From the NCBI GenBank assembly GCA_963921275.4, contig OZ001293.3:2560001-2624000 (forward strand): a DNA stretch of 64,000 nt, given 5' to 3'. Source of the DNA: an uncultured Hormoscilla sp. Its GTDB lineage: Bacteria > Cyanobacteriota > Cyanobacteriia > Cyanobacteriales > Desertifilaceae. Positions within the stretch are counted from its first letter, which is position 1, and the number at the start of each line of letters is the position of its first letter. The translations under genes and the position numbers were made by a program. Below the pieces are notes generated by a model, which saw only the letters and a program-made list of their open reading frames with translations, was not told where the DNA came from and did no database searches. Positions 12,147-63,780 of this stretch are shown piece by piece.

Positions 12147-12547
12147 TGCAACAACTATTTCGCTAGAATGCTTCCAAACTGGACGCAACTTAGGCAACAC
12201 AGCTTTTACAGCGGGGTTGTGGGAAACAGCGATCGAAGGATACGCCCTTGCCATCGAAGCCGTAGAAAAGAGTCGTGCTTGGGCGACCACAGAAGAACGC
12301 CGCCAGGAAATCTTAGAACAATCGATCGGGGTTTTCGAAAACATGGTACAGTCCTGCGTCAATACCGGGCAGCTTGACAAAGCCTTAGAATATGTCGAAC
12401 GTTCCTGTTCCAAACGCCTCGCCGACCTCATCGCCCACAACGACCTGTATGCTAAAGGAGAGATTCCCCCAGAAATCCAGCAGATTATCGGCAAGATTAA
12501 CCACCTGCAACAACAAATAGACGGAATGCGGTCTGAGGAAACTCCTC

Positions 12548-16232: not shown

Positions 16233-16840
16233 GGGTTTCTTTGACTATCTCGGTGGAGATGCGAAAATCACCTCCCAGAAACCCGGTTTCTGGTCTGCTC
16301 GCGATCGGGGAGCGTTCCGATGGGAGCTGAGAAACCGGGTTTCTTTGACTATCTCAGTGGGAATGCGAAAATCATCGTAGAAACCCGGTTTTTGGCCCGC
16401 TCGCGTCCGCGCTGCGTGCGCGCAGCGCATTCGTGTTCTGATGGGAGCTGAGAAACCGGGTTTCTTTGACCATCTTGGTGGGGATACGAAAATCATCGCA
16501 GAAACCGGGTTTCTGGTCTTGCCGCGATCGTGTTCCGGTGCCAGTTGAGAAACCGGGTTTCTTTGACTATCTCGGTAGGGATGCAAAAATCACCTCCCAG
16601 AAACCCGGTTTCTGGTCTGCTCGCGATCGGGGGGCGTTCCGGTGGGACTTGAGAAACCGGGTTTCTTTGAATATCTCGGTGGGAATGCGAAAATCACCTC
16701 CCAGAAACCGGGTTTCTGGTCTGACCGCGATCGGGGGGCGATCCGATGCCAGCTGAGAAACCGGGTTTCTTTGAATATCTCGGTGGGGATACGAAAATCA
16801 CCTCCCAGAAACCCGGTTTCTGACCTGCTCGCGATCGCCC
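16233..16840. repeat. tandem array of ~100-bp units (~6), each with two GAAACC(C/G)GGTTTC palindromes
   Basis: About 12 palindromes alternate with two classes of similar (non-unique) spacers; most units contain CGCGATCG. Confidence 0.92.
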
Positions 16841-17050
16841 ATCGCATGGGACTATCCAAAGGCGCAGTTCCTGACGGTTCGGAGTATACCTGACATGTCA
16901 AGGAGCTAGGGGGTTGACAATCAAAAATCAATCAGCTACTCTAAATAGAGTGCGATCGCGATCGTCGTCAGCATATCCACCAGATCGAATTTAGACTCTA
17001 TGAGTATCAATGTAGCGGGTGCATCTGGTGAGAAGCAAAAATATTAATGT

Positions 17051-35024: not shown

Positions 35025-37240
35025 TTTTGTTAACCTCCTTATTATCAACTCTTGTGGAAGTGAAAAGTTGAGCAATTAAATAAACTGCCATTCCCGCCGC
35101 CATACCGGGAAGCGTTTCGTTAACCCCATCGGACAGCTTCAATTCTATCCAGGTCAAAGCTGTACCGATGCCCACTAGCATCATGGCGATCGCCACGGGC
35201 GCACTTACGTTTTTCTGCCAAACCCGCAGGACCAATAACGGACCCAGACCAGATGCTAGGGCCGACCAGGAGAAAATTACCAACGCAAATATGTTGTCTG
35301 GAGCCAATATGGCGATCGCCACAACCAGTATTGTCACTAACAGAGTCCATAGCTTTGCCAGAGTATAAGAATTGACAGCGGCAGAAAAAATATCTCGACC
35401 CAGGGTAGCAGAACAAGAGAGAATCTGAGAGTCAGCAGTGAAAATGTGCGATGAGTTCTAGCCTAACGTAGTCAAACACGGAACGCTAGCCTAGGAAACT
35501 AGGAACTCTGATATTCATGGGGGTTCAATTCCTCTCCCCCAGGTACGGGGGTGACACCGGTCCTCAGTGCTGCGGAGCAACATCACCGTGGTGCCAAGCG
35601 AGGACTTAAATGTAGGATAGCTGGCAGCCTAAGCCGGTGACGCCGCTAGGAAAGATGGCCAAGGTTAGAGCAAGCGAACCCATGCAAGCCTCGTAAAGCT
35701 AAACCAGCGAAATAAGGCTTTATGCGCTGGCCCAAAAGGGGAAGTAGTTAGTATTGGTTATATTTTCTGGCCAATATCGTATTCAAAGAACTACCGGGGT
35801 ATAGTGGGGACCTAAAGTCATCGTGAAATGGTATCAGGGAACGAAGTAACCCCTCGTGTGCTGTCCATCGGGACAAGTCAGATGTGGAGCGAATGCCACG
35901 GGTGGGAAAGATGGCCCGAGAAGCTAATGCCTGGAGTAATGTCCACGGATAGGGATACGGATACGTATCCGCAGACGCGGGTCGGTGATAGTTGGAAACC
36001 TTCGGTAAAAGTAACCTTAAATACGCAGCGGTACTGAGTCCGGCGCTAGCTGGGCGACAGTTTGGATAAGTCCTCTGGACAAAGGGGTGAAGTAGCAGGA
36101 GGCAAGGGATAACAGGAGCAATCCTCAGTAAACCTACCCGTGACAAGGGCCAACTACCCAGTAGCCGTGTGCGGCTCCAGTCGCATGCACGGTTCCTCAA
36201 GGGAGGGTTGGGGAGCGATTCCCAGCGAGACCCCTAATAGTTCCCGCAAACAGTCCTGCCAACATCACTCCCACCAAGCCAACTGGTAATAATTCTAGTG
36301 CTAAATAGGGCAGGGTCAATTCCGGACCCCCTCCACTCATCAACTCTGGCATCAAGACTCTGCCTGTCAGTCCGATCGTCGTCGCCGTCAAGGAATTAAC
36401 CAGAAAGCAGATGCTTCTCACGTTGTTAGCCAAATCCATGTTATCTTCAGAATCGATCGCCATTGCCCGCACCATAATGTGAGGTTGACCGACTACGCCC
36501 AAACCGCTAACCAACCACCCGATCGCAAAAGGCAATACACCCCAGGCTAGATTTGGTGGATTCAAACTGACCAATGCCGGGTCAATAACGCCAAGTTTTC
36601 GACTCAATTCCATCACGCCACCGCAACTAGCAACCGCCACCACTGACAGCAGCAGTAAGGAACCAACCATCAAGATACCCTGGGCCGCATCGGTCCAGAT
36701 GGAGGCGCGGATACCCCCAGAAAAACAGTAGATGATAACGATGAAGGCTCCCAGTACGATACCAAAATAATAGTTCCAACCAAAGATCGCATTCAGGGCC
36801 TTGCTGCCAGCTACCAGTTGGGCGGCGGCATAAGCACCCAGAAACGCTATAGTAATTATCCCCGAGAGTGCGGCGATCGCCCGACCTGATTTTGCGGCCA
36901 GGAAAGAGGAGAAAGTCTCCGCATCCCTTTGGGCAGATATTTTTCTTAACCGCTTGCCCACCAACCACCAAGAGATATGCTGTCCCACCGTCGCGCTAAC
37001 AATACACCATATAGAAGCCAATACTAGTTTGTAGCTAAAACCGACCACACCTGCAAATAGAAAGCCACTCTGAGTGGTTGCCATCGCCGATAGCCTCGTC
37101 AGCCAGGGATTTACATTTCTGCTAGCTAGCAGGTAATCTGTAGTGGTCTTTTGCTTGCGCAACAGCGCCAATGTTCCCACCAATACAAATAATAGGAGAA
37201 AGGCGACGAAAGTAACCGCAATAGATGTTCTATCGTTCAT
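35014..37240 (-). pseudogene. Na+/proline-type symporter (SSS) interrupted by an antisense group II intron
   Basis: Joining 37240-36239 to 35445-35014 gives a 477-aa frame (...GLFAGT-IFTADSQILS...) paralogous to 45772-47193. Confidence 0.9.
35446..36238 (+). mobile_element. ORF-less group II intron, type B (793 nt)
   Basis: 5' GTGCG; D5 agccgtgtgcggctccagtcgcatgcacggttc; D6 ending gacccctaat; EBS1 ATTTTC (35762-35767) is complementary to the 5' flank GAAAAT. Confidence 0.92.
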
Positions 37241-37346
37241 CGGGGATGTTTTATTTGGTTTTCATTGACGGACTTCGCTCACCTGTGATTATACGGTGAA
37301 GATAATTTTACCAAGCTAGCCAACAGGCAATTTATTTTCCATCTGT

Positions 37347-38283
37347 TTACACATTGATAGCCGACTTACTCGATAAAGCAAGATAAGCCCCGAGCAAAAT
37401 TACTACAAAACTCACCAAAGTAGAGCCGCCGATGGTTTCCGAGAAAATTGCCCAAGCTTCCAAGGAGCTAAGGACGGGAACCAGCAGACTGCATAAGGAG
37501 GTTAATCCTGAAGATAATCGCTTGAGGCTATAAGCAAAAAGTCCCAGACCTAGCACTTGGCAGATCAAGGCTAGACCCATTACCGAAACCCACCCACTTA
37601 GGGAATAGGGAAAAAGCATATCTTCGGTGAAGATAACAACGGGTAAAACCAACACCGAAGCGATCGCAGAAACCCAAGTTATAATAATTATATAGTTCTC
37701 TTTAGTTCGCAGTTTTTCTACCAACGTATAAAGCAAAAAACAATGCTGATAGTAATGCTGCTAGATCGCCTGTAATCTTGTCACTGGCGGATTCAAAATC
37801 GTTTACTACTAGGAGACCAGCGCCAGCTATTGCTATAACCATGCCGAGAATAAATCTCTTGTCAAAGCGCCTAACCACCCCCCTAAGATGACGAACGTCA
37901 AATAATGCATGAAGGTAGAGTTGGCAACGCTAGTTTTAATTAGGGACCATGCCCACAGTATGAGAGCTACAGATATAACAATTCCTGCTGCTAGCAATAG
38001 CCCCAGTGGCTCAATGCTGTAGGGCTGCGGTTTGATTGGTTGCTTGTCAAAAAGTCGCCCTCGAACGACCAATACTCCATTCCACAATCCCAAGGTGACA
38101 GTAGCCACCCAAAAGCGATTAAAGATGGTAGCATTGGGAACTAGTTCCCCTTCGCTTAAGCTGATAAAAATGGGGGCGAAAGATATGGCTATTACGCCGA
38201 CCCCTAATGCCGCGATCGCCCACATAGTTTCTGTATCGATTTGCTGTTGCACGTACTAATTTAATTCGTAGGGTTGCGAACAT
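37347..38283 (-). pseudogene. EamA/DMT transporter, frameshifted paralogue of 41556-42506
   Basis: Same protein recognisable in three or more frames. Confidence 0.85.
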
Positions 38284-38370
38284 TGATTATCTCCAGTGAC
38301 TGATACAGATCCCTTGACAATTGCTTTATTATCTTCAGAAGATTTGTCATCTCTGATAAAAATCTGCTTT

Positions 38371-40285
38371 TCACAGATTGGTATACTTAAACTTAGAGCC
38401 ACAAGCTACAGGAATCCGTCTCGCTGCCCCACGCCATAACTCCAATGCCACATCGGACAAATTTTGACCATCCGCCTGGAGCATCCGCGAGATCATGCTA
38501 ATATTGCCAAAAGACCAAAACAAGCCCGCCTCCAGCAGATACGGCTCGTTGGTTTCGGCATGCACTCTGAAGTCATACAGGGAGTAATCGCGACCGCCCA
38601 AAGCTATATGTGCCCGCTTGGCTGCATCAGAGATTTTCTCCCATAAAGAAGGCGTGACATTCCCCGGACAGACGGGTTTCACTGCTGGCTTGTCAGGTTG
38701 TTTCCTGGGCAGTCCGTCCCCTTGCAGGTCATACTTATCACGTACAGTTCTAATGGGATTGTCCTTGGTGACTAAATACTCGATCGTCGGCAGCACCCAT
38801 AACTTCCCCTCACGTTCGACTACCCCCACGCGCAGTTCCCGTCCGGGGATGTAATCTTCTACCAACAAGGTCTCGTCATGTTCAAACCCCACCCGCAATG
38901 CTTCAACTATTTGATCTTCTTCCCAAACCAAAGTCAAGCCCAAAGAATTATCTTCCGAGTTCGGCTTCACCATAAATGGGGGCTGCATGGTCACGGTATC
39001 CCCCTGGCGCACAACTTGGGCCTTGGCCACCGGGACACCAGATGCTGACACGACGCTTCTGGTTTGAGCTTTGTTAGTTGCCAGGGCAGTACAACTAGGT
39101 GGCGACCCCACTACTGGTAGCCCGAGGATGTCCTCGAAGAATCCACGGAAACTAATCATCCCTGGGACACAGAACATATGCGGCACTACTACATCCACCT
39201 CCGGTAGCCCCGCGATCGCCTCTTGGAGGGGCATCTTCTCTGATGGATGGGGTCGAGCCGGGAATCGCTTCCCGACCCTCCCTTGAGGAACCGGACTTGC
39301 GATTTTCACCGCATCCGGCTACTGGGTACTAGGCCCTTTTCATAGGTAGACTTAATAGGAATTACTTCCGTTAGCCCTTGCCGCCTGTCTTTTCTTCCCT
39401 TTCCTGGTTTAGCGAGTGGTTGTTCTGATAACCGTTAGTATCACCATTTTCAAGTCAGTTTTACCAGTTATCCATACCTTATCCTCCACTTGCGTTTCGG
39501 ATTAGTTCCGTGGCTTTTTAGGATTACTCATTCCAGCAGCTTCCTAGTATCACCGACCCACGTCAGCGCTGGCTACCCAGCATCATCTACATTACTGTAG
39601 ATGTTATCCCAGGAATTACCCCGGGCATTCGCTTCTTGGGCCATCCCTCCCCCCGTGGCTTGCGCTTAACATCTAACTTGTCCTGATGGACAGCACACGA
39701 GAGGTTACTTCGTTCCCTAACAACATTTCGCGATACCTTTAGGTCCACACTATACCCCGGGAGCTATTTGAGTACTATATTAGCCAGAGTCTAAAACTAA
39801 TACTAGCTACCATTTCCTTTTTAGGCCAGCGCATATAGCCTTATTTCGCTGGTTCCTTATAACGAGGCTTGCACATGTTTGCCTGCTCTAACCTTGGATA
39901 TCTTTCCTAGCGGCGTCACCGGCTTAGGCTGCCAGTTATCCTACATTTGAGTCCTCGCTTAGCACCACGATGATGTCGCTTCGTAGCACCGAGGACCGGT
40001 GTCACCCCCGTACCTGGGGGGAGGGGAATTTAACCCCCATGCGGTCAGAGTTCCCGGCTAATGAAACCGGGCTAGCGTTCCGTGTTTGACCACGTTAGGC
40101 TAGAACGAATCGCACAGACTGTCTAAGGATGCACCTAGCTGCCAAAGACCATCCGGGTGTACCACGGCGTAGTAGCTACTGACACCAATTGGTTGCACTA
40201 CTTCCCTTGCGTAGATTACCGACAGGTTGTAGTAGAAGTCGGATACGCGAGAACCTGCTAGGTGCAAAACTCGCAAGCAAGGCAT
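38371..40285 (-). CDS. mysD: MysD-type D-Ala-D-Ala-ligase-like ATP-grasp enzyme, copy 1 (exons 40285-40116 and 39244-38371; 347 aa if spliced)
   Basis: MPCLRVLHLAGS..DFYYNLS..YA, PHMFCVPGM, VKP..EDNSLG, YSLYDFRV, LEAGL; MAA cluster context. Confidence 0.85.
39245..40115 (-). mobile_element. ORF-less group II intron, type A copy 1 (871 nt), sense orientation in mysD
   Basis: 5' GTGCGATTCG; D5 agccggatgcggtgaaaatcgcaagtccggttc; D6 gggtcgggaagcgattcccggctcgaccccatcc; no long ORF. Confidence 0.95.
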
Positions 40286-40342
40286 TGTGTCTGATATCAT
40301 CACCAATTTTTCTGTTGTACTTGAGTTTGCTCACATATCATA

Positions 40343-40425
40343 TTAAGGGAAGATGTTTGTTTATCTTTGCTGAAAAGCATTGCCACTCCATCAACAATCA
40401 TATTAGCAGCCATGACAGGAAGCAG
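40343..40425 (-). pseudogene. vestige of the SSS symporter 3' end
   Basis: tttgtttatctttgctgaaaa...tccat.aacaatcata matches ~45783-45830. Confidence 0.65.
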
Positions 40426-40498
40426 AACCCACCTGCGGTGAAACCCTTGCCTGGCAATTATTTTTATCTGTACGCGACCAGAAAAATTTCACGCTACT

Positions 40499-41551
40499 CT
40501 AGGGTACCATACTAAATTCCATTGCCGACAGGTTAGTTTTCGTGTGAACCACCTTTTCTAGCTGAAAACCACTAGCCTTAAACAAATCCTTAAATTCTTG
40601 TTCCGTGCGCCAGTTGCCTCCCGGGTTGGCAACCATCAACTGCACTGCAAAAAGAGCTGGTATTGTCCCATCCGGACATTCTACTGGATCTCCTAAATCT
40701 GGCACTAAGGTTTGTAGAAGTAATATTTTCCCATCTTTGGGGAGAGCTTCTTTACACCGACTCAGAACTTTCAGAGCATTTTCTTTATCCCACAGGGAGA
40801 GGAAATGTTTCATGACGATCGCATCTGCCCCCTTTGGCAATTCACCAAACACATCTCCACCTACTACTTCCAATGCATCACTGGCAATTCCCTGGCTTGA
40901 CAAAAACTCCAGGGCCTTCTCTACCACGTGAGGCAGGTCAAACAATATGCCCTTGATGCCACATTTTTTGATAATCCTGGAGAGCAGTACCCCCAGACCA
41001 CCGCCAACATCCATGACTTTATTAAAGCAGCTAAAATCATATACTTCAAGTAATGAATCTGTCAGTTCTAAAGTAAAAGCCGTCAAAGCCTTATTGAACA
41101 GATCCTTCATCTCGGGGTTATCCTTAGTAAACTGGTAGACCGTCTTACCATTGACCCGTTCAAAAGGCACTTCCCCTGTGTGCAAACAATCTTCCAGTTC
41201 CTGCCATGGCTGCCACATGCTGGGGACAATAAAATGCATGCCAAAATGTCCTAGAGAAGGTCCCTCATCAGTAACCAGCAAAGCCGACATTTCCGTTTGG
41301 CCAAACACCCGTCCTGGTTTTTCCTCAAGCACTCCTAAATGAGCTAGAGCCCTGAGAATAACGTAGATAATTTCTACATTGGTAGCAGTTTTTTCAGCGA
41401 TCTTCTCCACCGGATGCGGTCCCGACTTTAACAGGTTAGGGATTCCCAATCGCGTGAGGATATAAACGCACATGCTCTGCTGGTAAGCGTAGAACATTCG
41501 GTACAGCTTCTTCTTCGACTCCATTGTGGTATCCCCTGATTTATTTTCCAT
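40499..41551 (-). CDS. SAM-dependent methyltransferase (O-/N-methyltransferase type with dimerisation domain)
   Basis: VMDVGGGLG, LFDLPHVV, GGDVF, RTEQEFKDLF. Confidence 0.9.
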   Translation of the reverse strand: MENKSGDTTMESKKKLYRMFYAYQQSMCVYILTRLGIPNLLKSGPHPVEKIAEKTATNVEIIYVILRALAHLGVLEEKPGRVFGQTEMSALLVTDEGPSLGHFGMHFIVPSMWQPWQELEDCLHTGEVPFERVNGKTVYQFTKDNPEMKDLFNKALTAFTLELTDSLLEVYDFSCFNKVMDVGGGLGVLLSRIIKKCGIKGILFDLPHVVEKALEFLSSQGIASDALEVVGGDVFGELPKGADAIVMKHFLSLWDKENALKVLSRCKEALPKDGKILLLQTLVPDLGDPVECPDGTIPALFAVQLMVANPGGNWRTEQEFKDLFKASGFQLEKVVHTKTNLSAMEFSMVP

Positions 41552-41555
41552 ATGC

Positions 41556-42506
41556 TTACACCTTGATAGCAGATTTGCTCGATAAACCCAGATACGCCCC
41601 TAGCAATATTACCACAAAACTGAGTAAGGTAGCCCCCTTGATATTTTCTGAGAAAATTGCCCAAGCTTCCAGAGCGCTGAGGACTGGAACCAGCAGATCG
41701 CATAAGGAGACAAACCCTGAAGATAATTTATTGAGGCAATAGCTGTAAAGTCCCAGACCTATAGTTTGGCAGATTAGGGCTAGACAAATTACCGAAAGCC
41801 ACCCATTAATCGAATAGGGGAAAAGTCTCTCTTCGGTGAGCATAACGATCGGCAACAGTAAGATAGAGGCGATCGCCTCAGCCCAAGTCATAATAATTAT
41901 CGAGGTCAGTTCCCTGCGCAGTTCTTCTACCAGCAGGGTGTATAAGGAAAAAAACAATGCTGATAGTAATGCTGCTAGATCGCCAATAAGTTGGCCATTG
42001 GCCTCTGAGATATCGCTGACTCCCAGGATCCCAGCCCCTGCCATTGCGATCGCCATACCGAGAATAAATCTCTTGTCAAAGCGCCTACCCCAGATCCACC
42101 AGCCCCCGAGGACGACGAATAAAGGCATCAAATAATGCATCAGAGTAGAGTTGGCGACGCTGGTTTTGGTCAGAGACCATGCCCAGAGGATGAGACCAGC
42201 AGATAAAGCAATTCCTACTGCTAGCAATAGCCCTACTATTCTCATGCTGTAGAGCTGTGGTTTTATGGTATGGTTCTGTTCGGGACGTGCAGCCAAGAGG
42301 ATATTCCATAGCCCAAAGGCGACAGTGGCCAACCAGAAGCGATTAAAGATTGTGGCATTGGCACCGAGTTCCCCTTCACCTAAGCGGATAAAAATGGGTA
42401 CAAAAGATATGGCAATCATGCCCCCGACTAATGCGGCGATCGCCCACATAGTTTCTGTGGCTAAAAGCTGTTGCTGTGGTAATTTCAGTCGCAGGCTTGT
42501 GAACAT
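41556..42506 (-). CDS. EamA/DMT family transporter
   Basis: About 10 hydrophobic helices; ISFVPIFIR, SLTKTSVANST, GDLAALLSA. Confidence 0.9.
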   Translation of the reverse strand: MFTSLRLKLPQQQLLATETMWAIAALVGGMIAISFVPIFIRLGEGELGANATIFNRFWLATVAFGLWNILLAARPEQNHTIKPQLYSMRIVGLLLAVGIALSAGLILWAWSLTKTSVANSTLMHYLMPLFVVLGGWWIWGRRFDKRFILGMAIAMAGAGILGVSDISEANGQLIGDLAALLSALFFSLYTLLVEELRRELTSIIIMTWAEAIASILLLPIVMLTEERLFPYSINGWLSVICLALICQTIGLGLYSYCLNKLSSGFVSLCDLLVPVLSALEAWAIFSENIKGATLLSFVVILLGAYLGLSSKSAIKV

Positions 42507-42637
42507 TGATTATCTCCAGTAACTTATACAGAGCTTTTGCCTATTATCTTCTCTGGTGGCAGTAAAAAGTTGGGTAATTAAATCAACTACCATCACCAGC
42601 AGTAACCATCACGATCGCCTGCTTGGATCGATCAAAA

Positions 42638-43774
42638 TTAACTATGGCTGTGGAGCAGCCAGTGTAATCCTAATTGAAAAAGATTGCTGAAGAGCACTAT
42701 CATCAACACGGTATACAGGGAGAATCTATCTTTCCCGATCGGAGAATCCTCTATCCCTGTGGGGGTAGACTGAGGCTGTCTTTGGGTGGAACTGGAGATT
42801 ACGGGTAGATCGGCTTTAGCAATTACGGAGGCTCGCTCCTCTTGCAGGCAGCAGACTTTGGTGGTGGAATAGTGAGACCAGCCCCGTTGCTCGGCTTCTT
42901 CATAGTCTTTGACTGTCAAGCTTAAATGGGGAACCTCGATGTTGCCCTGACTGGCCATAGCCAGAGCCAGCCGCAAATCTTTATGCAGCAATTTGACAGT
43001 AAAGGCAGGGCGTGCAGAGATGTCATCAAAGCGTCGTGAGAACCAATAGTTAGGCAGGCCGTGAATGTCCCCGGCGTTCTGACCAAACGAGCCGAAGTGC
43101 AGGGCATCCCAAATGGTTTGTAGCGGCAGTCCTTGGGCTAAACCCAAGGTAATTCCTTCACTCGCGGCTTGGACTGCGATCGCATTGACAGCATTGTGGA
43201 TGAGTTTGCATCGAGTTCCGCTGCTAATCTCTCCACAGTAGAGAACCCGATCGGCCATCAGTTGGAGGATGGGCTGGACTCGCTCGAAGGTTTCCTTCGA
43301 GCCGCTGGCCAGAACGGCTAAACCCATGCCCTTCTGGCTTTGGGCACCTACAGGGCAATCATTAAAGGGGGCATCTAACATCTCAACCCCTAGTTGATCC
43401 ATGGCTTGATGAAGTCTGAGTATTGTTTCTGGAGAGTTAGTGGTAATGTCTACATAGACACTGCCCGATCGCAATCCTTGAGAGAGGTTCTTTTCGCCAT
43501 CCAGCACGGCTGTTATCACGTCCGCTGGAGTAGGTAGGGCGGTAAAGATTACCTCCGCACAACTCGCAAGTTCGGCACAACTTTGGGTGATGCGGGCACC
43601 TATAGACTGCAACTGGACCATGGAATCTGGATTGATGTCATAGACATAGACCGAGTAGCCAAGGGCTAGAAAATTAGCGGCTTGTCGTCCTCCAATATTA
43701 CCGCAACCGACGATCCCAAGGGTGGGATAATTGAGGGGCGAATCAGTCTCTGAACTGTTGTTGCTTGGTGACAT
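42638..43774 (-). CDS. beta-hydroxyacid dehydrogenase family NAD(P)-dependent oxidoreductase with a C-terminal hydrophobic tail
   Basis: GIVGCGNIG, DITTNSP, LDAP, CKLIHN, HKDLRLA. Confidence 0.88.
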   Translation of the reverse strand: MSPSNNSSETDSPLNYPTLGIVGCGNIGGRQAANFLALGYSVYVYDINPDSMVQLQSIGARITQSCAELASCAEVIFTALPTPADVITAVLDGEKNLSQGLRSGSVYVDITTNSPETILRLHQAMDQLGVEMLDAPFNDCPVGAQSQKGMGLAVLASGSKETFERVQPILQLMADRVLYCGEISSGTRCKLIHNAVNAIAVQAASEGITLGLAQGLPLQTIWDALHFGSFGQNAGDIHGLPNYWFSRRFDDISARPAFTVKLLHKDLRLALAMASQGNIEVPHLSLTVKDYEEAEQRGWSHYSTTKVCCLQEERASVIAKADLPVISSSTQRQPQSTPTGIEDSPIGKDRFSLYTVLMIVLFSNLFQLGLHWLLHSHS

Positions 43775-43790
43775 ATTGAGAACTTATCAT

Positions 43791-45720
43791 TTACGTTTTC
43801 TCTGCTTTCGCAGCGTACTTAAACTTGGCACCACAAGCTACACGAGTACGCCGAAGAGCCGCCGCACTCCACAACTCCCATGCCAGATCGGACAAACTTT
43901 GGCCATCCGCCTGCAGCATCCGCGAGATCATGCCAATTTTGCTGAAAGATCCATACAAACTCGCCTCCAGCATATAGGGCTCATCTGTCTCGGCATGCAC
44001 TCGGAAGTCATACAGGGAGCATTCGCGACAGCCCAAAGCTATATGTGCCCGCTTCACTGCATCAGAGATTTTCTCCCATAAAGAAGGCGTGACCTTAGCC
44101 GGACACACTGGCTTCACTGCTGGCTTGTCAGGTTGTTTCCTCGGCAGTCCGTCCCCTTGCAGGTCATACTTATCACGTAAAGTTCTAATGGGATTGTCGG
44201 AGGTGACTAAATACTCGATCGCTGGCAGCACCCATAACTTCCCCTCACGCTCGACTACTGCCACCCGCAGTTCCCGTCCGGGGATGTAATCTTCTACCAA
44301 CAAGGTTTCGTCATGTTCAAACCCCACCCGCAATGCTTCAACTATTTGATCTTCTTCCCAAACCAAAGTCAAGCCCAAAGAATTATCTTCCGAGTTCGGC
44401 TTAACTATAAATGGGGGCTGCATGGTCACGCTATCCCCTCGGCGCACAACTTGGGCCTTGGCGATCGGGACACCATAGGCTGATACTACGCTTCTGGTTT
44501 GAGCTTTGTTAGTTGCTAGGGCCGTACAACTAGGTGGCGACCCCACTACCGGTAGCCCGAGGATGTCCTCGAAGAGCCCACGGAAACTGGTCATCCCTGG
44601 GACACAGAACATATGCGGCACTACTACATCCACCTCCGGTAGCCCCGCGATCGCCTCTTGGAGGGGCATCTTCTCTGATGGATGGGGTCGAGCCGGGAAT
44701 CGCTTCCCGACCCTCCCTTGAGGAACCGGACTTGCGATTTTCACCGCATCCGGCTACTGGGTACTAGGCCCTTTTCATAGGTAGACTTAATAGGAATTAC
44801 TTCCGTTAGCCCTTGCCGCCTGTCTTTTCTTCCCTTTCCTGGTTTAGCGAGTGGTTGTTCTGATAACCGTTAGTATCACCATTTTCAAGTCAGTTTTACC
44901 AGTTATCCATACCTTATCCTCCACTTGCGTTTCGGATTAGTTCCGTGGCTTTTTAGGATTACTCATTCCAGCAGCTTCCTAGTATCACCGACCCACGTCA
45001 GCGCTGGCTACCCAGCATCATCTACATTACTGTAGATGTTATCCCAGGAATTACCCCGGGCATTCGCTTCTTGGGCCATCCCTCCCCCCGTGGCTTGCGC
45101 TTAACATCTAACTTGTCCTGATGGACAGCACACGAGAGGTTACTTCGTTCCCTAACAACATTTCGCGATACCTTTAGGTCCACACTATACCCCGGGAGCT
45201 ATTTGAGTACTATATTAGCCAGAGTCTAAAACTAATACTAGCTACCATTTCCTTTTTAGGCCAGCGCATATAGCCTTATTTCGCTGGTTCCTTATAACGA
45301 GGCTTGCACATGTTTGCCTGCTCTAACCTTGGATATCTTTCCTAGCGGCGTCACCGGCTTAGGCTGCCAGTTATCCTACATTTGAGTCCTCGCTTAGCAC
45401 CACGATGATGTCGCTTCGTAGCACCGAGGACCGGTGTCACCCCCGTACCTGGGGGGAGGGGAATTTAACCCCCATGCGGTCAGAGTTCCCGGCTAATGAA
45501 ACCGGGCTAGCGTTCCGTGTTTGACCACGTTAGGCTAGAACGAATCGCACAGACTATCTAAGGATGTGCCTAGCTGCCAAAGGCCATCGGGGTGTACCAC
45601 GGCGTAGTAGCTACTGACACCAACTGGTTGCACTACTTCCCTTGCGTAGATTACCGACAGGTTGTAGTAGAAGTCGGATACGCGAGAACCTGCTAGGTGC
45701 AAAACTCGCAAGCAAGGCAT
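43791..45720 (-). CDS. mysD: MysD-type ATP-grasp ligase, copy 2 (exons 45720-45551 and 44679-43791; 352 aa if spliced)
   Basis: Close paralogue of copy 1, with the intron at the same position. Confidence 0.85.
44680..45550 (-). mobile_element. ORF-less group II intron, type A copy 2 (871 nt), sense orientation in mysD
   Basis: Sequence appears identical to 39245-40115. Confidence 0.95.
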
Positions 45721-45771
45721 TGTTTCTGATATCATCCCCAATCTACTGTTGTACTTAATTTTTCTCAAATG

Positions 45772-47193
45772 TTAGGAATATTTTTGTTTATCTTTGCTGA
45801 AAAACTGAGCAATTCCATAAACAATCATACCTGTAGTCATTCCCGGAAGCACTTCGTACAGTATACCAGACAAGTTTAGTCCTAATTTCCATGTCAAAGC
45901 TGCCCCTATGCCCGCCACCATCATGGCGATCACCACTGGTGCCGTTACAGGTTTTTGCCAAACCCGGACTAGCAATAGCGGACCGAGACCAGAAGCTAGG
46001 GCTGACCAAGCAAAAATTACCAATGCGAATACATTATCATCTCCTGCCAACGCCATACTCAAAATTATCATTGTTACCGTCAGGGTTCCCAGTTTTGCCC
46101 ACTTGTAAGACTGGGCAATTTGAGGAAACAAATCCTGGGTTAGAGCTGCCGAACTTGACAGGATCTGAGAGTCAGCCGTAGATATCGTCGCAGCAAACAG
46201 TCCCGCTAGCATCAATCCTACCAAGATCGCTGGCAACAATTCTAGGGATAAATAGGGCAGTGCTAACTCCGGATCCCCATTAGACATTAATTCTGGTAGC
46301 ATCACTCTCGCTGTTAGTCCTACACCTATTGCACAAAAAGATGCCATCAGACCGCAGATTATTTTGATGTTGCGAGCTTTAGCTATACTATCGGCAGAGT
46401 CGATCGCCATACCTCGCACCAGGATATGAGGTTGACCTACCACCCCAAACCCTGCTGCTATCCAACCGATGAAAAAAGGCAACAGTCCTAACTGAAGGTT
46501 TTGCGGACTTAAGGAAACCAGTGCCGGGTCTATCTCGCCCAGTTTTCTCCATATTTGGACTACGCCACCGCTGCCAGCAACTGCAACTACCAGCAGCAGC
46601 AGCAAGGAACCGATCATCACCACTGATTGCGCTGCATCCGTCCAGATGGAGGCGCGGATACCTCCAGAAAAACAATAGATGACCACAATGACCGCCCCTA
46701 CTATTATACCCAAGTTGTAGTTCCACCCGAACACCGCATTTAGTGCCTTGCTACCTGCCACCAGTTGTGCTGCCGCATAGGTTCCCATCAAGGTAATAAT
46801 AATTAAAGCTGAGACCTTTGTAATCGGGCGAAACCCCTTTGTTTCTTGACCGAGTAAGGATGAGACTGTCTCGGAAGCAGTTAACTCCGATATTTGCCTT
46901 AACCGTTTGAAAACCAACCACCAAGCAATATAATCTCCTATAGCCCAGCCGATTGTCAACCATAGGGCCGAAATTCCTGCCTGGTAAGCGAAGCCTACCT
47001 CCCCGATAAACAAAAAGCCGCTTTGACCTGATGCCTGAGCCGATAGGGCCGTCAGCCAGGGATTGACATTTCTGCTAGCCAGCAGGTAATCACTCGTCGT
47101 ATTTTGCTTGCGGGTCGCAGAATATATTCCTACCATAGTAAATAATAGCAGAAAGGCGATGAATGTCACTGCGATCCCAAATTTATTATCCAT
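45772..47193 (-). CDS. Na+/proline-type symporter (SSS/PutP-like)
   Basis: DYLLASR, SGGIRASIWTD, GQPHILVR, AATISTADSQIL. Confidence 0.92.
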   Translation of the reverse strand: MDNKFGIAVTFIAFLLLFTMVGIYSATRKQNTTSDYLLASRNVNPWLTALSAQASGQSGFLFIGEVGFAYQAGISALWLTIGWAIGDYIAWWLVFKRLRQISELTASETVSSLLGQETKGFRPITKVSALIIITLMGTYAAAQLVAGSKALNAVFGWNYNLGIIVGAVIVVIYCFSGGIRASIWTDAAQSVVMIGSLLLLLVVAVAGSGGVVQIWRKLGEIDPALVSLSPQNLQLGLLPFFIGWIAAGFGVVGQPHILVRGMAIDSADSIAKARNIKIICGLMASFCAIGVGLTARVMLPELMSNGDPELALPYLSLELLPAILVGLMLAGLFAATISTADSQILSSSAALTQDLFPQIAQSYKWAKLGTLTVTMIILSMALAGDDNVFALVIFAWSALASGLGPLLLVRVWQKPVTAPVVIAMMVAGIGAALTWKLGLNLSGILYEVLPGMTTGMIVYGIAQFFSKDKQKYS

Positions 47194-47279
47194 TGTCAGT
47201 TTGTAGGGTGGGCATTGCCCACCAAGTTAGATGGCACTGACTTAAGGTTGGTGGGCGGTGCCCACCAACCTTCTGCGCC

Positions 47280-48493
47280 CTAGTCTCCGCCCAATTCTAC
47301 TAGCTTACCTATATTAAAATCAATCTTCACCCAACCTTTCAATTTTCTCATATTATTCAGCAGGAGTAATGGTATTTGCCAGTGGTGGACCATCAAAAAC
47401 GGCAAGGGGTCATTCACCTGGAAGATCCCATCCGTTCCCTTGATTATCTTATTAAACCACCCCTTGAGTTGCCCCCAAGATCTAATTCCCGTCAGTCGCC
47501 AGAGTTCGTGATATGTCCAATAGGTAGGTTTACTCTCAGGAAGTGGCTCAATGGGCGGTTTCCGATCGTCCTTGCTATCCTGAATATATGCATCCGCGAC
47601 CCCAGGATGATTGTAAAACATGGTGATTGCCGTGTGGGTGCGCGGGTTACATTCTACTGGATAAACTTTCCCATCTTTCGTCTGAATAACATCTAAAGAA
47701 ATTTGTCCTGTCAGGTTTAATGCCTTGACAAACTGCTGCACCCATTGGAAAATATCCTGGTTATCCACTTGCTCGTAATTTACCTGAAAGGGAGAAGACC
47801 GCGAACAGCATGCAGTCTGACGATCCCCTTCCTGACCGTACTGTGGGTACAATATTCTTGTCCGCGAATAAATTCCTGCATGATCCAAGGTTGGGACTCG
47901 CTGATGGGCAATCCCTTGACAAAACTTGCCATTTCCTCTAGGCTACTCATGGGCAGTTTCGTCAGATCCAAGCGGTAAACTGAGTTATAGGCGATACTCT
48001 TAATAATGTACTGACTGCCATCGGCGGTAAAGTCAAAGTTCAGCACTTGTTCGGGGTCTGTAATCAAAAATGCTTTTGGCGCAGTTAAACCAAACTCCCT
48101 CGCCTTTTGACAAAATGTAAACTTGTTATCTAACATCTCGGTAATCTCAGCATCAAAGGTTAACGCCTCGCAGTGAGGTGATAACAATGATTTCGCGATC
48201 GAGTCGTAGTAACTGGCAACGGGACTGGATACGGGAATAAAGACATCAATCTTTTCCTGCTTGACAATATCCAATAATCCCTGACAATAGCTGTTCGGGT
48301 CAATTTCGGGTGCTGGCACGGTGAAAAATCCCTTGACCGCCCGAGAAAAGCGATGTCCTGATAACCAGTATTTATGAGTTTCTACCAGAAACACTGTATG
48401 TCCGGCTGCGTGAAAGCAACGGGCCAGTTGCAGCGCTTTTGTCATCTTACCACCCGTAATCAAGATATTTTTGGGATTTGCCGCAACCACCTT
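47280..48493 (-). pseudogene. mysC: MysC ATP-grasp (mycosporine-glycine synthase), lacking its N-terminus and frameshifted near 47810
   Basis: ILITGGKMTKALQLAR, ETHKYWLSGHRFS, ECNPRTH, IDFNIGKLVELGGD. Confidence 0.92.
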
Positions 48494-49113
48494 TTTCTTA
48501 TCGGCATCGATAAACACCAAGTCAAAGGACTCCGAAGCATTTGCCAATTGGCGCAGGGTCTCTAAAGCCGGTGCTACCTTGACAGTAATTTTACTTCCGT
48601 GGGGGGACTCTTGGAAACAGTTTTGGCAAAGTTAGCCACATATTCATCCACCTCACAGGCAACCAGGAGTCCATCTTCTGGCAGGGCCTCTGCCATGGCC
48701 AGGGCCGAATATCCGGTGAACATGCCGATTTCCAAGATCCGTTTTGCCCCCGTCATGTGGACAAACATCTTCAGAGTTTGTCCCTCGACATGTCCCGAAA
48801 GCATCTCCTGTTCTAACTGTCGCACTAGCTCCCCATCTGAGAACCTTTTGCTCCAATCTTCTGAGGCCGTTTTGAGTGCCAATGCTGTCAAGGCGGGGGA
48901 CTCGGCAGTACTGCACTTATTCAGATAAGGTTCTATTCCTGCTGCCAGATCGTAGGCTTTTTGAACAGCAGCGGCCAGTTCTGCTGGCACCTTGGCGTCA
49001 GAGAGCATCTGCACTGCGCTGGCCAGATCTTCTACCAAGATACCCAAGGGGGTGACAGGTCTGGCTGTCTTTTCTTTCACAACCGTCGCGATCGTCATGC
49101 ACTCTTCTCCCAA
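48494..49113 (-). pseudogene. mysB: MysB O-methyltransferase, frameshifted near 48620 and C-terminally deleted
   Basis: TARPVTPLGIL, LEQEMLSGHVEGQTLKM, LEIGMFTGYSAL, FDLVFIDADK. Confidence 0.92.
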
Positions 49114-53903: not shown

Positions 53904-54774
53904 GTGCGATTCGTTCTAGCCTAACGTGGTCAAACACGGAACTCTAGCCCGGTTTCATTAGCCGGGAACTCTGACCGCATGGGGGTTAAATTCCCCTCCC
54001 CCCAGGTACGGGGGTGACACCGGTCCTCGGTGCTACGAAGCGACATCATCGTGGTGCTAAGCGAGGACTCAAATGTAGGATAACTGGCAGCCTAAGCCGG
54101 TGACGCCGCTAGGAAAGATATCCAAGGTTAGAGCAGGCAAACATGTGCAAGCCTCGTTATAAGGAACCAGCGAAATAAGGCTATATGCGCTGGCCTAAAA
54201 AGGAAATGGTAGCTAGTATTAGTTTTAGACTCTGGCTAATATAGTACTCAAATAGCTCCCGGGGTATAGTGTGGACCTAAAGGTATCGCGAAATGTTGTT
54301 AGGGAACGAAGTAACCTCTCGTGTGCTGTCCATCAGGACAAGTTAGATGTTAAGCGCAAGCCACGGGGGGAGGGATGGCCCAAGAAGCGAATGCCCGGGG
54401 TAATTCCTGGGATAACATCTACAGTAATGTAGATGATGCTGGGTAGCCAGCGCTGACGTGGGTCGGTGATACTAGGAAGCTGCTGGAATGAGTAATCCTA
54501 AAAAGCCACGGAACTAATCCGAAACGCAAGTGGAGGATAAGGTATGGATAACTGGTAAAACTGACTTGAAAATGGTGATACTAACGGTTATCAGAACAAC
54601 CACTCGCTAAACCAGGAAAGGGAAGAAAAGACAGGCGGCAAGGGCTAACGGAAGTAATTCCTATTAAGTCTACCTATGAAAAGGGCCTAGTACCCAGTAG
54701 CCGGATGCGGTGAAAATCGCAAGTCCGGTTCCTCAAGGGAGGGTCGGGAAGCGATTCCCGGCTCGACCCCATCC
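53904..54774 (+). mobile_element. ORF-less group II intron, type A copy 3 (871 nt), intergenic
   Basis: Same sequence as the other copies (one substitution seen near 53943); EBS2 ATAAGG at 54175-54180, EBS1 AGACTC at 54227-54232. Confidence 0.95.
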
Positions 54775-54869: not shown

Positions 54870-56019
54870 ATCACATAAGCTTGGATAATGCAAGGGTATA
54901 TCTCCCCTGTTTACAACATTCCTTACTCTGCCGATCGCCGCCGGCGTGCGCGCAGCGCAATCCCGAGCCTATCAGCAAGAGGTTGGCGCAGCATCTACCG
55001 TAAACTAGGGTGTGTCATCAATCAAATTGCTTGACAGAAGTAGATGGATACGGTATGGAGTCCTTATCCAGCAATAACAATCAAGAGGGCATGATATGAG
55101 ACGCTATGGCTTGCGAGACGACCAGTGGGAACGGATCGAACACCTTTTACCTGGTAAAGAGGGTGACCCAGGCGCTACAGCCAAGAACAATAGATTATTC
55201 GTGTTCTGCCGTGTTATATCGATATCGTGCTGGCATTCCCTGGCGGGATTTACCGGAGTGTTTTGGGGATTTTCGGGTTGTTCATACCCGCCATACCCGT
55301 TGGTCTGAAAAGGGAGTTTGGAAGCAGGTATTCGATGTCTTGGCCTCAGACGCCGATAACGAATACGCCGCGATTGATGCCACCATCCTGCGTGCCCATC
55401 AACGAGCGTGCGGGTGCAAAAAAAAACACCCTCAGATACGTGCGAAACCCAAGCCATAGGCCGTAGTAAAGGGGGACTATCGACAAAGATTCATGCCACT
55501 TGCGATTGCCCAAGGCAATCCCACAGGATTTCATCTTACCCCTGGCCAAGCCCACGACGGGAAAGGCGCTGACGTGCTATTGGATAAAATCGGTGAGATT
55601 GGCGCGCTGCTTGCAGATAAAGCCTATGATGCGGAACAACGTGTGCTCGAGCGCCTGAAAGAGGCGGATTGGATGGCTGTCATTCCTCCAAAAAGTAACC
55701 GCACAGAACACAGAGAAGACGATGAAGAAATGTACAAGTGGCGGCATCTAATTGAAAATCTATTCCAAAAACTCAAGCAATACAGGGCTCTGGCGACACG
55801 CTACGATAAAACGGCTCGCAATTTCTTGGGTGCCATCTACCTCGCGGCAGCTGTAATATGGCTTAATTGATGACACGCCCTAATCAATTTATCACATAAG
55901 CTTGGATAATGCAAGGGTAGATCTCCCCTGTTTAAAACCTTCCCTACTCCGCCGATTGCCGCCGGCGTGCGCGCAGCGCAATCCCGATACTGTCAGCAAG
56001 GGGTTGCCGCAGCATCTAC
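54870..56019 (+). repeat. two diverged ~130-bp direct repeats (54870-54998, 55891-56019) separated by IS5
   Basis: atcacataagcttggataatgcaagggta...gcagcatctac occurs on both sides of the IS. Confidence 0.85.
55008..55880 (+). mobile_element. IS5-family element, copy 2 (873 bp)
   Basis: Same translations as 33280-34152; TA duplication. Confidence 0.95.
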
Positions 56020-60275: not shown

Positions 60276-63200
60276 CTACACGAAGACGAAATTATCTGCT
60301 GTGAGAGCCGTAGCAGTGGATGGGGTCGAGCCGGGAATCGCTTCCCGACCCTCCCTTGAGGAACCGGACTTGCGATTTTCACCGCATCCGGCTACTGGGT
60401 ACTAGGCCCTTTTCATAGGTAGACTTAATAGGAATTACTTCCGTTAGCCCTTGCCGCCTGTCTTTTCTTCCCTTTCCTGGTTTAGCGAGTGGTTGTTCTG
60501 ATAACCGTTAGTATCACCATTTTCAAGTCAGTTTTACCAGTTATCCATACCTTATCCTCCACTTGCGTTTCGGATTAGTTCCGTGGCTTTTTAGGATTAC
60601 TCATTCCAGCAGCTTCCTAGTATCACCGACCCACGTCAGCGCTGGCTACCCAGCATCATCTACATTACTGTAGATGTTATCCCAGGAATTACCCCGGGCA
60701 TTCGCTTCTTGGGCCATCCCTCCCCCCGTGGCTTGCGCTTAACATCTAACTTGTCCTGATGGACAGCACACGAGAGGTTACTTCGTTCCCTAACAACATT
60801 TCGCGATACCTTTAGGTCCACACTATACCCCGGGAGCTATTTGAGTACTATATTAGCCAGAGTCTAAAACTAATACTAGCTACCATTTCCTTTTTAGGCC
60901 AGCGCATATAGCCTTATTTCGCTGGTTCCTTATAACGAGGCTTGCACATGTTTGCCTGCTCTAACCTTGGATATCTTTCCTAGCGGCGTCACCGGCTTAG
61001 GCTGCCAGTTATCCTACATTTGAGTCCTCGCTTAGCACCACGATGATGTCGCTTCGTAGCACCGAGGACCGGTGTCACCCCCGTACCTGGGGGGAGGGGA
61101 ATTTAACCCCCATGCGGTCAGAGTTCCCGGCTAATGAAACCGGGCTAGCGTTCCGTGTTTGACCACGTTAGGCTAGAACGAATCGCACAACCCCAATAAG
61201 GGTTAGAGAGTCATCATCATCGAAAGTGATGACTGTATTAGATCCATTTTGGGTAGTTGCCCCTAAAACCGCTGTTAAATCAGGGAATCAAAAAGCGCTA
61301 ACGTCAATAGCATCCTCAGAGATGTCGAAGTCGGTAATAGCATCCGCACTACCACTATCGGTAGCGACGAAAGTATCTGCTGCTGCTCCCAGACTCACCG
61401 TAACGGCTGTACCGGAGTTTTGGGTGAAACTGTCACTCCCACCTCCAAGTAAAACATCACCGTTGAGAGTACCATTATTGACAACATTGATGCTACCAAG
61501 AGAGCCACTAGCATGAATAGCAGCGTTCCCGTTACCACCTGTAATAGTACCCCCAGCTTCGTTGGTGATGGTGCCGTTAAACGCTACACCTGCCTGAATG
61601 AGGATACCAGCACTTTCCTCAGAAGCAATGGTACCGGAGTTAGTGATGGAACCTGTTACCGTAGCTCCTGCTGTACCGCTGAAGAAGCGAATCCCAGCGG
61701 GAACATTATCAGCACCCCGCCCTCGAATTGAACCCTGGTTTGAGATGACAATATTCTCAGAAGTTGCATCCTCATCAACTTCGCCAATTTCAGCTGAGAT
61801 CCCGCTACCGGAATTCCCGGCTCCTGCATCGATAGTACCACTACTATTGATAGTAATGCCATCTGCTGTGCCATCTAAGTAAATAGTACCATTGCGCTGA
61901 TCTCCTGTTTTCAGAATCTGCCCGGTGTTAATTAGGGTGACGCCATTACCGTCCAAGTTCACTGCACGACTGTCGGAGGATATGGTTCCTGCATTTAATA
62001 TGGTCAAATCATGGTCAGCATTACCAATATAAAGACTATTATTTGGTCCTTCAATCTCACCACTGTTGGTGATCGTGCCATCGAAAGCCACTCCATCTTC
62101 TACCAAAATCCCGCCCACAGTGCCAGTTTCTGCTTCGGTTGAGATGATATTGAAGTTGGTAATATAAGCTGTTACAGTGGCTTCTCCTTCAGCAGCAGTC
62201 AAACCGCTGAAGAAGCGGATCCCAGCGGGAACATTATCAGCACCCCGCCCTCGAATTGAACCCCGGTTTGAGATGACAATATTCTCAGAAGTTGCATCCT
62301 CATCAACTTCGCCAATTTCAGCTGAGATCCCGCTACCGGAATTCCCTGCTCCTGCATCGATGGTACCACTACTATTGATAGTAATGCCATCTGCTGTGCC
62401 ATCTAGGTAAATATTACCATTGCGCTGATCCCCCGTTCCCAGAATCTGCCCACTGTTATTCAGGGTGACATTATCCCCGTCCAAGTTGACTGCACGACTG
62501 TCGGAGGATATGGTTCCTGCATTTAATATGGTCAAATCATGGTCAGCATTAACAATATAAAGACCATTATTTGGTCCTTCAATCTCGCCACCATATCTGT
62601 TAGCGATCGTGCCATCGAAAGCCACTCCATCTTCTACCAAAATCCTGCCCACAGTGCCAGTTTCTGCTTCGGTTGAGATGATATTGAAGTTGGTAATATA
62701 AGCTGTTACAGTGGCTTCTCCTTCAGCAGCAGTCAAACCGCTGAAGAAGCGGATCCCAGCGGGAACATTATCAGCACCCCGCCCTCGAATTGAACCCCGG
62801 TTTGAGATGACAATATTCTCAGAAGTTGCATCCTCATCAACTTCGCCAATTTCAGCTGAGATCCCGCTACCGGAATTCCCTGCTCCTGCATCGATGGTAC
62901 CACTACTATTGATAGTAATGCCATCTGCTGTGCCATCTAGGTAAATAGTACCATTGCGCTGATCTCCTGTTCCCAGAATCTGCCCACTGTTATTCAGGGT
63001 GACATTATCCCCGTCCAAGTTGACTGCACGGCTATCTGAAGATATCTCCCCTGAATTTTTAATCCTGAGATTGTGGCGAGCATTACCAACGTAAATACCA
63101 TTGATATCTCCTTCAATCTCACCCCACAAACGGTTGTTGATAATACCATTGAAAGCGACCCCATCTTGAACCACAATTGCACCGCCAGCGTCTATCTCAG

Positions 63201-63527
63201 CTGAAATGGTGCCATAGTTAAAGATTGAACCAGTTACAGTCGCTTCCCCTTCATCTAAACCATTGGAGAAGCCGATACCATTTCCTGTACCTCGACCTGC
63301 TATAGTGCCATAGTTGGTGATTTCGATTTTCCGAGAATTGGCGTCTTCACTCCCAGAGCCAACTTCTTCGTAAATTCCAGCTCCGGAGTTACCAACACCT
63401 GCATCGATGATTCCGGAACTTAGATTTTCGATAGCGACGTTATCGGCGGCACCTGTTATCGTAACCACCGCAGTAGCTTCACCTTCCAGTCCCAGATTTT
63501 CATCATTAGTGAAAATCTGATTATCAT
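60276..63527 (-). pseudogene. Gly/Asn-rich repeat (beta-helix/RTX-like) secreted protein with T1SS-type C-terminus; in-frame TGA at 61288, intron, lost N-terminus
   Basis: N.G.I repeats with a 534-bp tandem period; the frame continues past TGA as FPDLTAV...SLTLIGV|TATALTADNFVFV*. Confidence 0.82.
60318..61188 (-). mobile_element. ORF-less group II intron, type A copy 4 (871 nt)
   Basis: Same sequence; 5' flank CCTTATTGGGGTT matches EBS2/EBS1. Confidence 0.95.
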
Positions 63528-63624
63528 CCACGCTGCGCGATCGGGGGAGTTCGATGCCATGGCTGCGCCACGCTGCGCGATCGGGGGAGTTCGATGCCAT
63601 GGCTGCGCCACGCTGCGCGATCGG
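63528..63624. repeat. 41-bp tandem repeat of the small HIP1-associated element
   Basis: ccacgctgcgcgatcgggggagttcgatgccatggctgcg x2.4. Confidence 0.85.
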
Positions 63625-63780
63625 GGGAGTTCGAGATTGCTTCGTACCTCGCAATGCTGCGCGGTTCGGAGTTCGGAGTTCGGATACTTCTGATGAAATC
63701 ATGCAGGCTCACATCTGCGCGAATGCGCTGCGCGTCCCGTAAGGGATACGCAACGACAGGAACGGCGATCGCGCCCTAAA

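Follow-up and report, generated by a model that had tools for sequence, protein, structure and literature searches.

The 64,000-nucleotide (nt) stretch of contig OZ001293.3 of an uncultured Hormoscilla sp. analysed here, referred to as the window, contains four copies (A to D) of an 871-nt repeat, each of them a group II intron without an open reading frame (ORF). These copies probably represent a recently mobile, chloroplast-like (IIB2-type) family with the true ends 5'-GUGCG...GACCCCAUCC-3', in which the 3' splice site would be set by standard pairs. By consensus, group II introns end in AY; a sister intron in the same window ends in AU, and the main family ends in CC. The departure concerns one position, since a C at the very end is an ordinary Y and only the base before it, C in place of A, deviates. 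The first-pass annotation of this DNA, which described the family as not ending in AY, was right about the penultimate base and not about the last, which appears to pair with the gamma G.

In the proposed arrangement the 5' splice site would be defined by the canonical GUGCG together with pairing of two exon-binding sites (EBS), EBS1 (AGACU) and EBS2 (UAAGG), with the 5' exon. The 3' splice site would lie 8 nt downstream of the branch adenosine of domain 6 (D6), and two standard single pairs would set it: a gamma-gamma' pair between G470, in the junction between domains 2 and 3 (J2/3), and C871, and an EBS3-IBS3 (IBS, intron-binding site) or delta-delta' pair between an intron U and the A that invariably opens the 3' exon (+1). 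The sole real departures would then be the penultimate C in place of A, as in RmInt1, and a spacer longer by 1-2 nt. The AU just upstream would resemble a splice site to consensus models only; its use would entail G-U pairing at gamma and, at EBS3, a mismatch of U with C. Having no reverse transcriptase of their own, the copies would have to rely for splicing and mobilisation on a protein from another part of the genome, as in Thermosynechococcus.

Intron copies and the position of the 3' end

Copy A (39245-40115, minus strand) lies in sense orientation within mysD paralogue 1, between exon 1 (40116-40300, minus; approximate start at the first in-frame ATG, end ...GAC AGT CT) and exon 2 (38371-39244, minus), whose first base A completes the junction codon CT/A (a slash marks the cut here and below). 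Copy B (44680-45550, minus) lies in sense in mysD paralogue 2, and both paralogues hold the identical intron at the same site. Copy C (53904-54774, plus) is found in non-coding DNA beside an insertion sequence (IS) element. Copy D (60318-61188, minus; GTGCG...GACCCCATCC), the one addressed by the first-pass annotation, separates exon 1 of a repeat-rich protein, of calcium-binding/secretion type by its homologues (61189-63702, minus), from a short exon 2 (60276-60317, minus) which, on translation and comparison with homologue C-termini, reads TATALTADNFVFV followed by a TAG stop. The span 60276-60335, on which that annotation had centred, begins at the last base of the host TAG (60276), crosses from exon 2 into the intron at 60317/60318 and reaches into D6 of copy D.

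Three of the copies (A, B and D) share one and the same sequence, from which copy C deviates only at intron nt 40 (T, not G). The block common to all four is T/GTGCG...GACCCCATCC/A, ending ATCC/A, and the flanks outside it are unrelated; near-identical copies thus occupy at least three independent sites within the window. As had been claimed, GACCCCATCC followed by A is read in every copy: the window holds exactly four exact matches, at 39245-39254 (-), 44680-44689 (-), 54765-54774 (+) and 60318-60327 (-), each the 3' end of one 871-nt repeat, and all four read ATCC/A. When up to one mismatch was allowed, 13 matches were obtained against 3.8 expected, a number reached in none of 100 shuffles. 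Comparison of the two mysD paralogues gives 100% identity for their introns and 88% for a 300-nt stretch of exon, indicating that the intron spread or was converted recently. Judged from its sequence, the intron family is a recently mobile ribozyme lineage.

The Rfam alignment for domain 5 (D5) and D6 (RF00029) stops at AU, two bases early, and leaves outside it the terminal CC (intron nt 870-871; 60318-60319, minus, in copy D), which comprises the penultimate C and the putative gamma' C. When the intron is taken from GTGCG to this AT, mysD is frameshifted to DSLHQRRCPS... and runs into stops within about 20 codons, and the copy-D host reads LIGVPLLRLSQQ..., which destroys its C-terminal motif. 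When the cut is placed after ATCC, mysD reads DSLSEKM... and the copy-D host reads LIGVTATALTADNFVFV followed by its stop. The earlier statement that an AT cut frameshifts both hosts and an ATCC cut restores both was thus upheld by the translations and by homologues of the two proteins.

An alignment to intron-free orthologues, proposed in the first-pass annotation as a check, was made at the protein level for mysD with 39 homologues (from 120 listed of 343 matches). Thirty-eight of the 39 cross the junction without an insertion or deletion (indel), with L at the junction in 33, M in 5 and P in none. Excision of GTGCG...ATCC yields L, and the resulting SLDSLSEK(M) is identical in the best homologue. 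For the copy-D host 119 homologues were compared, 44 of which bear a C-terminal motif of the type L..GV....L..NF.F; the host sequence LIGV-TATA-LTADNFVFV, followed by the stop, matches its spacing. Amongst these 44, the dipeptide aligned with the G-V of the host is GV in 21, NV in 10 and GA in none. Taken together with the exon pairings described below, the 3' boundary of the main intron evidently lies after ATCC and not at the AU of the Rfam model.

The description of this host as a secreted protein held with regard to its secretion-type homologues and its C-terminal motif, but the gene carries an in-frame TGA at 61288-61290 (-), 33 codons upstream of the intron (..DVSAF-stop-FPDL..), where the homologues read on. 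This could reflect a pseudogene, a sequencing error or read-through.

Exon pairings, domain folds and intron class

A GUGYG-type 5' end is present throughout, GTGCG following a common T in all four copies and in the sister intron, which is 793 nt long (35446-36238, plus; GTGCG...GACCCCTAAT/A) and lies antisense inside a sodium:solute symporter gene. EBS1 (AGACU, intron A324-U328; 60861-60865, minus, in copy D) lies within the loop UUAGACUCU (nt 322-330) and pairs with IBS1 sequences reading AGUCU in copies A and B, AGUUU in C and GGGUU in D. At the aligned place the sister has AUUUUC, facing its own IBS1 GAAAAU, so that EBS1 and IBS1 covary between the two introns. EBS2 (UAAGG, U256-G260; 60929-60933, minus), unpaired in the predicted fold, is matched by an IBS2 of CCUUA in all four main-intron 5' exons. 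Since these two pairings set the 5' splice site directly before GUGCG, the 3' site falls after AUCC.

The J2/3 segment, between a hairpin at nt 412-467 and a stem at 474-561, reads AGGGAU in the main intron (A468-U473; 60716-60721, minus, in copy D) and AAAGAU in the sister. Directly ahead of the conserved GA of this segment, the main intron, with its final C, has a G, and the sister, with its final U, has an A. In ai5gamma the J2/3 reads A587-G-A. For P.li.LSUI2, A420 is described as gamma and A422 as a residue of J2/3 (PMC6224600). By analogy gamma would be G470 in the main intron and the corresponding A in the sister, a putative compensatory change with the last intron base. The first base of the 3' exon is A at all five insertion sites, and two possible readers of this base may be suggested on the same grounds. 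One is U364 as EBS3 (60825, minus), located in an internal loop (5' strand GCAA, 3' strand AUA) between the stems 239-243/366-370 and 248-253/357-362, the outer of which covaries between main and sister introns; the other is U323, directly 5' of EBS1, as delta. The modelling of D6, gamma-gamma' and EBS3 that had been proposed earlier was thereby accomplished to the extent that D6 was folded and G470 and U364 emerged as probable partners.

The RF00029 model, with a gathering score of 40, gave 44.4 bits for every one of the four copies (60320-60396 in copy D). Its consensus ends in ...CUACCCcAu with the branch A at -7, which is a 6-nt spacer, and the first D6 pair of the present intron is flagged as non-canonical. 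Domain 5 (nt 795-828; 60361-60394, minus) has an AGC triad, a 2-nt bulge and a GAAA loop. On folding, D5-D6 gave z = -4.4 with none of 200 shuffles as stable, and the local fold of D6 consists of a 10-bp upper helix with a GCGA loop, A837 opposite G862-A863, a 3-bp GGG/CCC helix and a 5-nt tail, CAUCC. Around the D6 bulge each intron has a single A, A863 of 871 in the main one (60326, minus, in copy D) and A785 of 793 in the sister, in both cases 9 nt from the intron end as first reported. This candidate branch A would be unpaired in a 1x2 internal loop and would leave a spacer of 8 nt. The usual spacer between branch A and 3' site is 6 or 7 nt (PMC9294222), and the predicted branch point thus puts the distance 1-2 nt above the usual. 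The basal helix of D6 can slip by one base, as four Cs face three Gs; this is an equal-energy alternative in folding only and gives no evidence for the published D6 strand shift.

A stop-to-stop frame longer than 58 amino acids (aa) is absent from the 871-nt intron, and no reverse transcriptase or maturase family was recognized among the 39 window ORFs scanned, which suggests that the intron is an ORF-less derivative. Its 5' end, GUGCGAUUC, corresponds to the 5' consensus given as a criterion for IIB2 introns in the available part of the source (PMC4649490). With respect to the other features of this class, EBS2 is unpaired in the predicted fold, the EBS3 is a putative one and the spacer is 8 nt as against 7 nt in IIB2. 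D5 resembles the plastid ndhA/ndhB and petD D5 models with 30.8 and 21.6 bits, both below threshold. The 5' end, the unpaired EBS2 and D5 tentatively point to the chloroplast-like IIB2 type.

A further possibility concerns GGAUGG at nt 470-475 (J2/3 and the start of D3; 60714-60719 in copy D), which complements the last six nucleotides, CCAUCC (866-871; 60318-60323). It is the sole complement of these six nucleotides in the whole intron, stands in register with gamma and is paired with the intron 3' end in the whole-intron minimum free energy fold. All four terminal bases are changed between sister and main intron (UAAU to AUCC); three of the changed bases became complementary to the unchanged J2/3 bases G471, A472 and U473, and the fourth is matched by the change of gamma from A to G. 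The sister has no such hexamer complementarity beyond the terminal pair and two C-G pairs. The 3' site of the main lineage might accordingly be chosen by an extended helix CCAUCC/GGAUGG and not by a single gamma-gamma' pair. We regard this as rather unlikely: three extra in-register pairs would arise by chance in about 1 of 64 cases, and the two outermost pairs face competition from D3 and D6. Should the helix exist, the terminal CC and the spacer of 8 nt would both belong to a redefined 3' site, and this site would transiently engage J2/3 nucleotides that normally form the catalytic triplex.

Related introns and competing explanations

A search with a 43-aa peptide translated from the intron 3' end revealed five further proteins (P0241-P0245), all encoded on the same 6.88-Mb contig outside the window. 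They start with MKIASPVP(Q/K)GRVGKRFPARPH, a leader of 21-22 aa that is the translated intron 3' end from D5-D6 (K for Q in P0244), continue with P, from CC, in four of the five, and then run into unrelated sequence. These leaders, which look like a gene-calling artefact in which callers start exon 2 inside the intron, mark more copies and suggest that the family is more numerous in the genome. The junction codon of P0242 encodes S where the other four have P, which indicates that its intron end differs. As another junction test P0244 was aligned with the Uma2-family ORF of the window, and no significant alignment was obtained. The peptide search yielded proteins of the same genome only, and a distant-mode blastn search of the intron against 72,556 plasmid records returned no similarity. 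These records presumably include the megaplasmids that bear RmInt1. An 18-nt D5/J5-6/D6 pattern found at least 10 loci in genome contigs of unrelated phyla; these were rejected as intron relatives and taken for chance matches, as none of the matches listed has a group II D5-D6.

In a flank-inclusive alignment about 79% of the columns are identical between the sister intron and the main one. The sister ends ...TAAT, its GACCCCTAAT standing at the position aligned with the main 3' end. It scores 27.2 bits with RF00029, under the gathering score of 40, and its UCCA in place of a GNRA loop in D5 together with mismatches in D6 make it look like a decaying copy. It keeps the 9-nt branch A distance yet ends in canonical AU. 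Excision of 35446-36238 joins the ORFs 36197-37261 (-) and 35014-35457 (-) into a 477-aa symporter ORF; an intact paralogue of 473 aa (45772-47193) aligns with it collinearly, and no indel falls at the junction. Since the sister lies antisense to its host gene, its splicing from the host mRNA is impossible and the symporter gene is divided; the boundary of the sister is ambiguous by an AAT repeat. The earlier placement of its end at the aligned position therefore stands, and its frame verification is valid for the insertion and not for a spliced mRNA.

Three other explanations of the CC end may be weighed against the proposed one. The Rfam model ends at AU, which would suit an intron with a canonical end (...CCCCAU) and a CC belonging to the 3' exon, the frame being kept by a 5' site 2 nt (or 1 nt) upstream of GUGCG. 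An equal shift of both ends does preserve the frame, and a shift of -1 gives the copy-D host the same protein. Shifts of -1 or -2 nt nevertheless put P at the mysD junction, a residue found in none of the 38 spanning homologues, and the -2 shift gives the copy-D host the GA that is missing from all 44 motif-bearing homologues. The intron would moreover not start at G1 of GUGCG, the start to which the covarying EBS1-IBS1 pairing fits, and we find it hardly credible that the CC is exonic. Shifts in the opposite direction were also rejected, since at +1 or +2 the intron would begin with UGCG or GCGA, and a +2 shift would also give different last bases to copies that are otherwise the same. Splicing after both AU and AUCC, as in B.a.I2, with AU use truncating or altering the host proteins, appears improbable. 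AU stands at the consensus distance from the branch A (6-nt spacer), G470 could wobble-pair with U869, two close 3' sites have been described (PMC9294222, PMC4424553) and the C-run of RmInt1 is reported to lower 3' fidelity (PMC4238363). According to the available text, however, each B.a.I2 site has gamma-gamma' and EBS3-IBS3 pairs of its own, whereas here the AU site would have a wobble as its gamma pair and would place C870 as IBS3 opposite the putative EBS3 U, a mismatch. The AU product also frameshifts mysD and wrecks the C-terminal motif of the copy-D host, and all mobile copies carry CC, from which it follows that the RNA that reverse-spliced was cut after CC.

The copies might also be mere insertions that no longer splice, with the interrupted genes as pseudogenes and the CC recording the mode of insertion. 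The missing reverse transcriptase or maturase gene amongst the scanned ORFs, the TGA of the copy-D host, the intergenic copy C, the antisense sister and the broken EamA and symporter genes of the second cluster copy would all agree with this. On the other hand, inserted group II intron ends are those of the excised RNA, so a cut after CC must have occurred in the donor. The copies are identical or one base apart with D5 triad, GNRA loop and D6 bulge intact, and both mysD paralogues have open, homologue-like exons on either side. ORF-less cyanobacterial introns are moreover known to be spliced and mobilised in trans (PMC2882425), and the idea of dead insertions therefore seems very doubtful.

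Several points also weigh against the proposed family of CC-ended, spliced introns. Splicing, the ligated junction and the branch point are deduced from DNA alone. Given the TGA in the copy-D host, the intergenic position of copy C and the antisense sister, only the two mysD copies argue for selected accurate splicing. Shifts of both boundaries by +1 or +2 still give L in mysD and stay in frame in the copy-D host, so that the amino-acid data alone are insufficient to fix the boundary. The covariation involves two sequences, the main intron and a decayed-looking sister, and the gamma, EBS3 and delta positions are assigned by analogy and not from a class-specific model. The Rfam models for domains 1 to 4 (D1-D4) reach only 22 bits against a gathering score of 36, too low for assigning a class, and P0242, one of the five extra copies, has S at the junction codon and a differing 3' end. 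No relatives from other genomes were found by the pattern scan (among the matches listed), the plasmid blastn search or the peptide search.

The CC end itself has a published counterpart in RmInt1 of Sinorhizobium meliloti (class D / IIB3), which likewise deviates from AY by a penultimate pyrimidine (PMC4238363). According to the available part of that report, a purine in J2/3 is the partner of the final C of RmInt1 (the G-C gamma pair of the wild type is as common in nature as A-U), and an EBS3 located in the ID(iii)-ID(iv) loop recognises the base that opens the 3' exon; similar contacts would operate in the main intron. RmInt1 has its own intron-encoded protein (IEP), unlike the main intron. 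The CC of RmInt1 is also followed by an exonic CC, the resulting CCCC run being blamed for poor fidelity, whereas the exon of the main intron begins with A and its 3' site is therefore not ambiguous in this way. The likeness is confined to the CC end, the RmInt1 sequence not having been aligned directly and the D5 and 5' end of the main intron looking chloroplast-like/IIB2.

Displacement of the 3' site has been described for two IIB introns, B.a.I2 of Bacillus anthracis, with two 3' sites 4 nt apart, and B.c.I4, with a site at +53/56 nt (PMC9294222, PMC4424553). As presented in the available text, their 3' sites fall off the 6/7-nt distance, and it is gamma-gamma' and EBS3-IBS3, not distance alone, that determine them. 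B.a.I2 uses two sites, whereas the main intron would use a single site shifted by 1-2 nt only. B.c.I4 has a structured extension of 53-56 nt (domain VII), where the main intron has five unpaired nucleotides after D6 and no extra domain. The closest biological parallel is the TeI3-type family of Thermosynechococcus elongatus, also cyanobacterial IIB introns that have lost their ORF and multiplied in one genome, and which are spliced and mobilised in trans by IEPs (PMC2882425). The available part of that account mentions no unusual 3' end, unlike that of the present family, for which a scan of 39 window ORFs revealed no driver IEP.

The earlier proposal of a mobile lineage with altered 3' geometry is consequently sustained by the near-identical copies and by the spacer, long by 1-2 nt, and loses its novelty in part through RmInt1, B.a.I2 and B.c.I4. 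The competing cryptic AU site that it included gained no support, and the putative pairings speak against it. Neither a CC end nor flexible spacing is unprecedented; the new part is a second, apparently unrelated natural intron ending in CC, with a slightly long spacer, and other documented intron classes may also depart from AY. This second example showed no detected similarity to the plasmid records searched, is free of an ambiguous C-run and has multiplied successfully. The family offers a clean natural test of the roles of the penultimate A and of the 6/7-nt spacer in the second splicing step. Because consensus models such as RF00029 end the intron two bases early, automated annotation frameshifts the interrupted genes or adds a false leader to exon 2. 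Six public proteins start with the intron-derived peptide MKIASPVP....

Host genes and their surroundings

Both mysD paralogues belong to a sunscreen (mycosporine-like amino acid) gene cluster and would, if spliced as proposed, depend on a splicing event at a CC end. A literature search found no paper combining 'mysD' and 'group II intron'. The region 36200-47200 (-) holds a duplicated segment of this mycosporine-type cluster (symporter, mysD and EamA transporter) with 68-88% identity between the copies. One cluster copy has a fragmented EamA gene (37347-37736 and 37833-38252) and a split symporter gene. The interval 47280-49113 (-) contains the overlapping ORFs 47280-47888 and 47780-48547 without a Pfam match, and a 179-aa ORF that matches an O-methyltransferase profile at positions 21-95 only. 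Frameshift or truncation of cluster genes may account for these ORFs.

An IS element with a DDE_Tnp_1 transposase occurs twice, at 33269-34142 and 54997-55870 (+), with 99% identity over a repeated 300 nt, and the end of intron copy C lies about 220 nt upstream of the second IS copy. The copy-D host gene contains long tandem repeats at 61535-63036 (-) in units of 528-534 nt. Other long tandem repeats were found at 11545-12234, 14313-15017 and 16233-16904; they comprise units of 138 nt within a gene for a TPR protein and further 405-nt and 104-nt arrays.

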